NCBI GenBank assembly: GCA_036001325.1
Contig: DASYUK010000375.1
Span: 1,616-65,615, forward strand
DNA from: Thermoanaerobaculia bacterium
Lineage (GTDB): Bacteria; Acidobacteriota; Thermoanaerobaculia; Gp7-AA8
DNA length: 64,000 nt
Direction: 5' to 3'
Shown here: positions 50,352-51,172 of the stretch, one piece after another
Numbering within the stretch: position 1 is the stretch's first letter
Layout of the letters: each line of letters starts with the position of its first letter
Position numbers and translations under genes: made by a program
Notes under the pieces: model-generated
Seen by the model: the letters and a program-made list of their open reading frames with translations, nothing else
What the model was told of the DNA's origin: nothing
Databases searched by the model: none

Positions 50352-50396
50352 TGGTGCGCCCAGCTGGATTCGAACCAGCGGCCTTCAGCTCCGGAG
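50352..50396. repeat. 45-bp direct repeat identical to the 3' half of tRNA-Arg (51096-51140); att-like duplication delimiting a ~0.8-kb islet
   Basis: TGGTGCGCCCAGCTGGATTCGAACCAGCGGCCTTCAGCTCCGGAG occurs at both positions; the second is part of the intact tRNA gene. Confidence 0.75.
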
Positions 50397-50596
50397 AACG
50401 ATTCGCGCACGTGAAAAAGTGAGCGCTGGTGCGGGTTTGCTCGCGATCAGCCGGGTCGATACGATTCTAGCTCGTCCACGGTCGTCACCAGACATCCGCG
50501 GATGTCCGTATGGCGCAGAAATAGACACCCGTTTAGACACCTTCCCAGGTGTGCTATCCGTGCGATCATTGTTGCGCAGACGGCGAGGAGAACATG

Positions 50597-50788
50597 ATGG
50601 AAGGCATCCACTTCGTGACCGACGAGAAAGGACACAAAATCGCCGTGCAGATCGACCTCGAACGGTACCGCGAACTGTGGGAGGACTTCTATGATGCGCT
50701 CACCATTGAACAGCGCCGAAGCGATCAACGCCTTCCACTGCGCGAAGTGAAGAAGCGTCTCGCCCGGGCCAGCAAGTTGCGTGGCTGA
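50597..50788 (+). CDS. Type II antitoxin (63 aa) paired with the downstream RelE/ParE toxin
   Basis: MEGIHFVTDEKGHKIAVQIDLERYRELWEDFYDALTIEQRRSD... Overlaps the toxin gene by 8 nt. RBS GAGGAG upstream. Confidence 0.55.
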   Translation: MEGIHFVTDEKGHKIAVQIDLERYRELWEDFYDALTIEQRRSDQRLPLREVKKRLARASKLRG

Positions 50789-51041
50789 TTACGAAGTCCT
50801 CGTTTCGCGCCGAGCCGCAGATGAAATCGAAGACCTGCCGAAGTCGATCGCGACGCGTGTCTACGCGAAGCTCGAAGCGCTTGCTCATGAACCGCGGCTG
50901 TCGGGCGTCAAGAAACTTCGTGGCAGCGCGAAGGGATGGCGCATCCGAGTCGGAGACTACCGGGTTCTCTTTGAGGTCGACGATGAGCGTAGGGTTGTCG
51001 ACGTCGCGGCCGTTCGCCACCGCAGCAAAGCCTACGATTGA
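50781..51041 (+). CDS. RelE/ParE family type II toxin
   Basis: GSAKGWRIRVGDYRVLFEVDDERRVVDVAAVRHRSKAY is the typical RelE/ParE C-terminal pattern. 86 aa. Confidence 0.7.
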   Translation: MADYEVLVSRRAADEIEDLPKSIATRVYAKLEALAHEPRLSGVKKLRGSAKGWRIRVGDYRVLFEVDDERRVVDVAAVRHRSKAYD

Positions 51042-51095
51042 GCGTACGTGGCGCTCCGTTCCAGGCCGAGCGGAAACTCCGCTTCTCAAGAACTT

Positions 51096-51172
51096 TGGTG
51101 CGCCCAGCTGGATTCGAACCAGCGGCCTTCAGCTCCGGAGGCTGACGCTCTATCCATCTGAGCTATGGGCGC
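51096..51172 (-). tRNA. tRNA-Arg (anticodon CCG)
   Basis: The reverse complement GCGCCCATAGCTCAGATGGATAGAGCGTCAGCCTCCGGAGCTGAAGGCCGCTGGTTCGAATCCAGCTGGGCGCACCA folds as a cloverleaf with anticodon loop CUCCGGA and a TTCGAAT T-loop. CCA is encoded. Confidence 0.85.

Follow-up and report, generated by a model that had tools for sequence, protein, structure and literature searches.

The DNA analysed here, referred to as the window, is a stretch of 64,000 nucleotides from a Thermoanaerobaculia bacterium (assembly GCA_036001325.1, contig DASYUK010000375.1, positions 1,616 to 65,615 of the forward strand), and our subject is a small islet within it, in which a toxin-antitoxin (TA) gene pair and a conserved non-coding module are enclosed between an intact tRNA gene and a displaced copy of that gene's 3' part. 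The sole tRNA that ARAGORN found in the window is tRNA-Arg(CCG), which occupies 51096-51172 on the minus strand and scores 72.1 bits against an Rfam gathering score of 29. A repeat search and a DNA pattern search both revealed an exact 46-nt direct repeat (50351-50396 being identical to 51095-51140), which consists of the 3' 45 nt of the tRNA, i.e., sequential positions 33-77 from the anticodon loop through CCA, together with one flanking T; the exact 45-nt duplication reported in a preliminary description of this DNA is therefore real and in fact one base longer. The two copies, which we call attachment (att) copies, start 744 bp apart and enclose an interior of 698 bp (50397-51094). The proximal copy is the 3' end of the intact gene itself (51096-51140), the presumed integration target, and the distal copy (50351-50396, minus strand) is a displaced tRNA 3' part that marks the far boundary of the insert. 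Over 50355-50426 the latter reaches only 20.3 bits with the Rfam tRNA model, and for this reason we do not regard it as a functional tRNA.

Repeats of a tRNA 3' part with one copy inside the intact gene are the att arrangement of tRNA-targeting integrative elements. The earlier proposal of an attL/attR-type signature holds in that the block from the anticodon loop to the 3' end is duplicated and the enclosed DNA is foreign to its flanks, with which it has nothing in common. The base composition of the islet is not deviant (GC fraction 0.56-0.61 vs 0.57-0.63 in the flanks), in contrast to what would be expected of a classical genomic island. No third att copy with up to 3 mismatches occurs in the 64-kb window (and 0 of 100 shuffles produced any match), and searches of the window for degenerate copies with 3 mismatches, an 18-nt core, blastn-short and an nhmmer profile gave no further copy. 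The DNA bordering the distal copy ends in ...GGGCAATCGT, and the deduced empty site is that flank joined to the full tRNA.

Four independently assembled Joint Genome Institute (JGI) metagenome contigs (L001-L004; related loci are given L numbers throughout) carry the same repeat and interior, with one single-nucleotide difference in 1078 aligned bases. Because these contigs agree, the arrangement cannot reasonably be attributed to an assembly artefact. Inexactness of the repeat on re-sequencing had been named in advance as a reason to abandon the idea of integration, and the repeat proved exact in all five assemblies. Chimeric joins are also unlikely because the exact repeat (46 nt in the window and 52 nt at most among the related loci) is shorter than the assemblers' k-mers, whose size we inferred from 'k141' in related contig names.

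The interior carries two overlapping open reading frames (ORFs) on the plus strand, the only plausible ones in the 698 bp. The first (50594-50788) encodes a RelB-like antitoxin of 64 aa starting at ATG 50594, or of 63 aa if the second ATG at 50597 is used, with a GAGGAG ribosome-binding site ahead of it. The second (50781-51041) starts with GTG, overlaps the antitoxin stop by 8 nt and encodes an 86-aa toxin of the RelE type within the RelE/ParE superfamily; both the gene order and the 8-nt overlap are as in type II TA systems of the RelBE type. The toxin matches PF05016 (ParE_toxin) at 49 bits against a cut-off of 23, and its nearest solved structures are mRNA interferases of the RelE type (2khe, 9g12, 1wmi, 3g5o and E. 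coli RelE, with E values of 1e-6 to 1e-2), with which its C-terminal R...Y region can be aligned. These Pfam and PDB matches place it within the RelE/ParE fold family, and an identical protein from a Thermoanaerobaculia metagenome-assembled genome (MAG) is listed at NCBI as a RelE/ParE family toxin (P0001). The exact antitoxin protein is present on four JGI contigs, and its family is conserved, with seven homologues of 58-78% identity that are each encoded upstream of a toxin. The resemblance to known RelBE-type systems thus lies in a small antitoxin gene overlapping a downstream gene for an 86-aa toxin of the RelE/ParE fold; unlike those systems, the antitoxin has no solved-structure relative in sequence and profile searches of the PDB and matches a RelB-like Pfam family only at the borderline, and the TA activity of the pair is a prediction.

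Behind the toxin stop the tRNA-proximal end of the insert (51042-51094) comprises 53 nt that hold no conserved motif and are not homologous to the ends of other cassettes, the corresponding one of L048 included. A scan of the islet for consensus promoters found none. An inverted repeat, ACACCT-TCCC-AGGTGT, lies at 50537-50552, 42 nt before the antitoxin start, and overlaps the second of two direct repeats described below; it is probably not the operator of the TA genes, as it is conserved neither in L048 nor in TA operons that lack the module.

The preliminary description recognised only the TA pair between the repeats. The pair does belong to the RelE/ParE superfamily, but a conserved non-coding module of about 150 nt (50397-50544), directly beside the distal att copy, was overlooked; an nhmmer profile matches it over 50403-50544 with an E value of 1e-40. 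It begins with a degenerate stretch resembling a tRNA 5' half (about 50397-50427), continues with an inverted repeat, GCTGGTGCG...CGC-G-ATCAGC (50425-50451), and a 16-bp palindrome, GACATCCGCGGATGTC (50491-50506), and ends in direct repeats of TAGACACC at 50522-50529 and 50534-50541, spaced by 12 bp. TAGACAC occurs on the plus strand of the 64 kb only at these two repeat sites. Homologues of the module (73-85% identity) directly follow partial tRNA copies on about 20 other contigs, always in the same orientation. Across this family the inverted repeat and a palindrome of 12-16 bp are conserved, the modules end in two direct repeats of TTAGACACC (three in L034) about one helical turn apart, and a TAGAAT motif is conserved on the tRNA strand. 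The arm of an integrase attachment site has this appearance, with palindromes and paired direct repeats next to a recombination core, and we propose on this ground that the module is a recombination-site arm, i.e., a predicted binding region for an integrase or accessory proteins.

Two other assignments of the module were considered and rejected. A coding sequence is contradicted by 1-nt indels between copies. A structured RNA was supported neither by Rfam, which recognised nothing other than tRNA, nor by RNAalifold, whose weak consensus had -6.4 kcal/mol and a covariation term of 0; covariation under a hand-drawn two-hairpin model was no better than in shuffles. Separately, the only other TAGACAC of the window lies on the minus strand at 50857-50863, within the toxin gene, and is kept at the equivalent site in L048, L050 and L084 (L048:1492). 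It could be a chance occurrence within a conserved run of codons, or a third binding site. A further observation concerns the neighbourhood of the module in relatives: L046 has a complete tRNA-Ala(CGC) gene (L046:1172-1248, plus strand), and fragments of the same tRNA are found at L039:433-482 and L073:8042-8091 and, in shorter form, in L041, L056 and L087. The gene and its fragments lie about 40-190 nt past the module or att copy, on the same strand as the tRNA-Arg half, and in L046 the spacer between the att region and tRNA-Ala carries AACTAGAC repeats that resemble those of the module. The att region of the cassettes may therefore descend from a tRNA-Ala/tRNA-Arg gene pair; the window's own islet contains no tRNA-Ala fragment.

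The islet belongs to a larger family of such inserts. Scanning JGI metagenome contigs with the exact 44-nt core of the repeat yielded 62 stretches (59 non-redundant loci), mostly short contigs, and in about half of the 59 a partial copy is present instead of the tRNA or besides it. Most partial copies are then followed by a module homologue in fixed orientation with unrelated cargo behind it, which amounts to about 20 distinct copies. They are often arranged in tandem downstream of tRNA-Arg(CCG), and complete units measured from att to att span 0.34-7.8 kb: four units cover 12.8 kb in WNEZ01000017.1 (WNEZ hereafter), those of L040/L055 measure 1.2 and 0.8 kb, and more arrays occur in L047, L056, L072, L075 and L085. 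According to Pfam, the cargo includes Ser/Thr kinases, PD40 and NHL repeat proteins, an amidohydrolase, an ABC ATPase, regulators, a protein like TonB-dependent receptors and a histidine kinase; no mobility genes were found among it.

Flank clustering and pairwise alignments further revealed that cassettes are present in some strains and absent from others. A flank that is 98.6% identical between L061 and L047 adjoins the intact tRNA in the former and, in the latter, an att copy with its module and at least two cassettes. The flank of L066 (92% identical) adjoins the tRNA, and the same flank in L065, L034 and L046 adjoins three different cassettes. The tRNA-adjacent cassette of L089 is found three units further out in WNEZ, and L043 and WNEZ share a 4.4-kb cassette at 99.7% identity, which has different outer neighbours in the two. 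For sister cassettes there are thus the occupied and empty pairs L061/L047, L066/L065 and L089/WNEZ. The arrangement of the copies has the topology of Campbell integration at the tRNA, the units nearest to it being the newer ones.

Older sites erode, as is visible from an att copy with an internal deletion (L059), from orphan module fragments (L035, L056, L080 and L095) and from a module of WNEZ that has lost an internal part; transposase fragments are also present in the arrays. Two ORFs of this kind were noted by eye. One, of 311 aa (L041:2182-3114, plus strand in the stored orientation), resembles an N-terminally truncated IS110-family transposase in its YEAGPCGY region and lies about 0.5 kb from an att copy with module, the only such gene among all the loci. 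The other, of 88 aa, has the look of the C-terminus of an rve-type (IS3/IS481-like) transposase and lies in a 713-bp cassette of WNEZ01000017.1 (L082+L052; 9263-9529 of the reverse-complemented concatenation), which is among the smallest.

The unit seen in the window recurs elsewhere. Over the 724 nt from the att copy through the toxin stop, L048, L050 and L084, which represent one population, are 76% identical to the window. Their unit has an exact att at its left end and, about 200 nt past the toxin, a degenerate att (87%) at its right end, with flanking genes unrelated to the window's. Divergence from the window is equal for the module and the TA genes, which implies that they travelled together. 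The toxin of these three loci is apparently disrupted, since it aligns as two overlapping pieces.

The TA operon also occurs as a separate unit (50559-51041, plus strand), comprising the promoter region and both genes. This span aligns with 66-78% nucleotide identity in six other contexts with different neighbours (L114-L116, L118-L122), beside none of which an att copy or module was found. In L117, where the operon is 69% identical at the nucleotide level and the toxin 61% at the amino acid level, a Phage_integrase gene follows the toxin. Given these six contexts and L117, all without att or module, the operon also moves by itself, and the comparison shows that it is promiscuous and was recruited in the window as the sole cargo of a cassette made of att and module. 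The L117 region (L117:3080-7839; GCA_019347635.1, JAHWLB010000015.1) looks like a small integrative or replicative element in its own right: the TA operon stands beside genes for a 357-aa Phage_integrase, a 348-aa unknown protein, a 753-aa primase (Toprim/DnaG-like) and a helix-turn-helix regulator, and the 9-kb contig carries no tRNA, att or module.

The islet was described from the start as having no integrase, and we extend this to the whole 64-kb window and beyond. A regular expression for box II of tyrosine recombinases found no integrase in the window and about 95 related loci, and neither did phmmer when the 4108 ORFs of the same set that reach 100 aa were searched with lambda Int and P4 Int; with these as the only two seeds, very divergent recombinases or short fragments could escape. 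The serine-recombinase motif was absent from the window and loci, and Pfam recognised no recombinase among 10 unassigned ORFs of the window and 10 large cassette ORFs. An integrase-bearing relative with this att was found neither in the 62 metagenome stretches and 26 genome loci nor in IMG/VR and the phage and plasmid collections, which were covered by exact-core and short-contig searches. IMG/VR gave nothing, or chance matches confined to the pattern, when queried with the exact core, a shorter core, two module motifs and a junction motif, and the module had no blastn match in the phage and plasmid collections. As core and module are both without a match in these three collections, an origin from a phage or plasmid was rejected. 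The recombinase that a typical tRNA-targeting island encodes, in most cases beside the tRNA, was hence found neither in the islet nor in the rest of the window, and within the searches made there is no autonomous element of the same att specificity.

How, then, could such an islet have arisen? A cis-mobilisable element (CIME) keeps attL and attR and has lost the genes for integration and transfer, and it can accrete in tandem with integrative and conjugative (ICE) or integrative and mobilisable (IME) elements (PMC5704250). The islet has precisely this structure, with attL and attR present and no integration or transfer genes. The explanation that we prefer, and consider reasonably probable, is that the islet is a discrete CIME-like cassette that was placed by an integrase encoded elsewhere. 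The shared module, the recurrence of the att-bounded unit and the strain-level insertion polymorphism are the reasons for which we prefer a discrete cassette to a chance leftover.

The envisaged mechanism is a Campbell-type site-specific recombination within the block from the anticodon loop to the 3' end of tRNA-Arg(CCG). The block brought in by the cassette would complete a working tRNA, and the chromosomal original would be displaced by 744 bp and come to lie beside the module. The recombinase would most likely be a tyrosine integrase, encoded elsewhere, whose arm-binding domain reads the TAGACACC repeats. It could act in trans on a circular cassette, or else the cassette could have been part of a tandem with an autonomous element that carried it in and afterwards excised without it. 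The second route, known as accretion-mobilisation, would explain the lack of an integrase together with the retained arm and the shuffled arrays. New units would enter beside the tRNA and shift older ones outward, and the islet itself may still be mobile. The TA pair would penalise loss of the cassette through post-segregational arrest by the RelE-type toxin, and this penalty would in turn explain fixation of the islet in the population, given that all five assemblies are occupied.

Several observations weigh against this explanation. An integrase of matching specificity was not found, which leaves the central actor hypothetical, and several of the polymorphic contigs (e.g., L047) end before the tRNA, so that an autonomous element could lie there unseen. 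Among the five assemblies, all occupied, there is neither an empty-site allele nor a circular junction of the islet. The requirement for an exact 44-nt core biases our sample towards intact att copies, and the module might be conserved because decaying elements descend from a common ancestor and not because its function is under selection. Furthermore, the conserved arm is present on one side of the cassette only, whereas arms flanking the core left and right are found in many attP sites of tyrosine integrases. Finally, the antitoxin's match to PF18506 (RelB-like) scores 26.9 bits against a cut-off of 27, a borderline result that falls 0.1 bit short.

The preliminary description saw in the islet a largely deleted island with a surviving addiction module. 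Spelled out, this would mean that a conventional integrase-bearing island or prophage entered at tRNA-Arg, that an internal deletion in this lineage left only the distal end with the TA pair, whose loss is toxic, and that the islet neither moved as a unit in the past nor can do so now. Such a private remnant now appears rather unlikely to us. It would account for an islet without an integrase, and the L117 homologue beside Phage_integrase and primase genes indicates that this TA family rides integrase-bearing elements, but L117 has no att, tRNA or module. That decay operates at these loci is clear from the decayed sites and transposase fragments listed above, and degenerate remnants have been described in tycheposon islands too, yet the about 20 other integrase-less cassettes retain the module, not one of the roughly 95 loci holds an integrase fragment and no integrase-bearing relative with this att turned up. 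The unit of att, module and TA genes is found att-bounded amid other neighbours in L048, L050 and L084, a result that independent random deletion would not repeat, and with the toxin stop 53 nt from the tRNA the deletion would have to have ended nearly at the att. It should be kept in mind that a CIME is by definition a decayed element with att kept, and hence the cassette and remnant explanations overlap. A bolder interpretation, which we find doubtful, is an integron-like cassette system at tRNA-Arg(CCG) in soil Thermoanaerobaculia: the need in cis would be only about 200 bp, namely the tRNA 3' half and the module with its TAGACACC repeats, on small circular cassettes that a chromosomal or episomal integrase would capture, shuffle and release in trans beside the tRNA. 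The islet would then be a minimal selfish member of the system with an addiction module as its sole cargo.

Two further explanations dispense with a cassette altogether. The partial tRNA and the 150-nt module might together form a functional or regulatory RNA, such as a tRNA-like small RNA or a guide or bridge-type RNA for an RNA-guided recombinase, with the TA genes merely adjacent. The module is indeed non-coding and conserved, with TAGAAT on the tRNA strand, ARAGORN scores the partial copy and module start as a tRNA in L034 and L085, and the Rfam tRNA model aligns end to end in the window, at 20 bits; no Rfam family other than tRNA matches, however, the folding and hairpin results given above are weak, and no consensus promoter was seen. 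An IS110-family transposase remnant does lie about 0.5 kb from the L041 module, but the gene is truncated and is found near only one of about 20 modules, and all in all we judge an RNA gene very improbable. That no integration took place, and the repeat arose by local duplication, homologous recombination or faulty assembly, is scarcely credible. The repeat is merely 46 nt long and MAGs can be chimeric, but five independent assemblies agree, the interior is unlike the flanks, the repeat is exactly the block from anticodon loop to CCA that is typical of integrase targets, and the same type of junction, with Campbell-type topology, recurs in dozens of contigs.

Comparison with known systems helps to delimit the cassette explanation. 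The first CIMEs to be described were those at the fda locus in Streptococcus thermophilus (PMC5704250). The likeness extends to att-flanked units in tandem at the 3' end of a target gene and to movement that is proposed to depend on a helper with a matching integrase. Unlike them, the units described here are much smaller (0.3-7.8 kb, and 0.74 kb for the islet), possess a conserved arm of about 150 nt, reside in soil Acidobacteriota and come without an identified helper ICE or IME, and their mobilisation is predicted from their structure. The tycheposons of Prochlorococcus are tRNA-anchored islands in which serial integration pushes older units outward (10.1101/2020.12.28.424599). Partial tRNA copies between units, accessory cargo and common degenerate remnants are shared features, and the tRNA half-site is present here as it is in tycheposons. 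However, tycheposons have their own tyrosine recombinase and a replication module, with fragmented integrases in the islands, whereas neither was found here, whole or as a fragment, in about 95 loci, and the att-adjacent module is particular to the present cassette family. The tycheposon study was reportedly published later in Cell (2023).

Integrons offer another parallel. Vibrio superintegrons consist of small recombinase-less cassettes with one site each, are served by an outside recombinase, and contain TA cassettes that are thought to stabilise the array. As in integron arrays, recombinase-less cassettes are here inserted at one anchor point. On the other hand, intI, attI and attC are all absent, no recombinase is encoded in the window or loci, the anchor is a tRNA gene, and the sites are tRNA halves with a double-stranded-looking arm in which hairpin covariation is not seen; unlike in integrons, cassette genes occur in either orientation, presumably with promoters of their own. 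Tandem islands anchored at ssrA in Dehalococcoides likewise arise by repeated site-specific integration that leaves 3'-end direct repeats and a hypervariable region (PMC3146451). They resemble the present arrays in the repeated targeting of a single small-RNA gene and differ in that the target is tmRNA, vs tRNA-Arg here. Dehalococcoides ssrA islands carry their own integrase, and none was seen here.

The islet sits at the edge of a broader variable region. A scan of one genome per species with the neighbouring 1045-aa regulator as query gave 26 syntenic loci, all from Thermoanaerobaculia/Acidobacteriota MAGs, and in 18 of them tRNA-Arg(CCG) follows the conserved genes p479, 1045-aa and p391. 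Synteny ends at the tRNA, and the window's downstream genes recur in none of these loci. Relatives that share the side upstream of the tRNA (L057, 87% identical at the nucleotide level, L092 and L094) each have unrelated DNA downstream of it, and the closest genome match, L005, stops short of the tRNA. From prs to the distal att (46542-50350), outside the cassette proper, the window contains genes for a PQQ_2 beta-propeller, RibD_C, DUF11 and 329-aa proteins. Among relatives whose tRNA variant is that of the window, prs lies only about 0.7 kb from the tRNA in L045 and L088, and in L036 another gene (a 1153-aa ORF) occupies the interval; the 4.5 kb of the window is for this reason taken as a variable region, of which the TA islet is the tRNA-proximal 0.74 kb. 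The earlier suggestion that DNA outside the repeat may be older cargo fits these three relatives as well as L078, where a RibD_C homologue (42% aa identity) adjoins an att copy, but no decayed att or module remnant was detected in 46.5-50.35 kb of the window; these genes are possibly older accreted cargo. The gene at 49154-50143 (minus strand) had been labelled NPP1-like, a label that we drop, as it has no NPP1 Pfam match and only a weak one to Vps62 (E 0.0023, below cut-off).

A few observations on the host locus stand apart from the islet. The 1045-aa protein (52412-55549, minus strand) has Response_reg as its only Pfam match and by eye consists of two near-duplicate halves, in each of which a receiver-like domain comes after a Cys-rich stretch. 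Homologues throughout Thermoanaerobaculia are 50-80% identical to it and keep its synteny with p479, p391 and the tRNA. In seven of the 18 syntenic genomes (L018, L012, L013, L021, L026, L027 and L030) tRNA-Arg is inverted relative to the conserved upstream genes, possibly through recombination between inverted att copies. In L018:15633-17526, the inverted tRNA is 1.6 kb away from a RelE/ParE homologue (42% aa), which adjoins 13 nt that match the tRNA 3' end in inverted orientation. In L016 (8649-9041), from a distant relative whose tRNA-Arg(CCG) differs in sequence, a 58-nt partial copy (positions 20-77, 95%) lies 259 bp past the tRNA; this copy is near the contig end, where a module is undetectable, and may represent a second, independent mini-islet at tRNA-Arg.

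What we describe is a known way of building genome islands, the CIME or tRNA-anchored accretion array, here in a new lineage; comparable island building is found in marine Prochlorococcus and in the tandems of streptococcal ICEs and CIMEs. The islet can be viewed as a selfish minimal element in which an addiction module and a recombination site are all that is present. Should there be no integrase at all, the arrays would be nothing more than accumulated decayed elements, an ordinary finding. If an integrase is identified, the 150-nt module would be a defined cis-site and the arrays a natural record of the order in which cassettes were gained, and the system could explain strain-level variation of gene content in soil metagenomes as well as the poor assembly of such regions. 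Overall, the pattern suggests that the abundant and poorly studied Thermoanaerobaculia of soils build a hypervariable accessory region from small recombinase-less cassettes at one tRNA.

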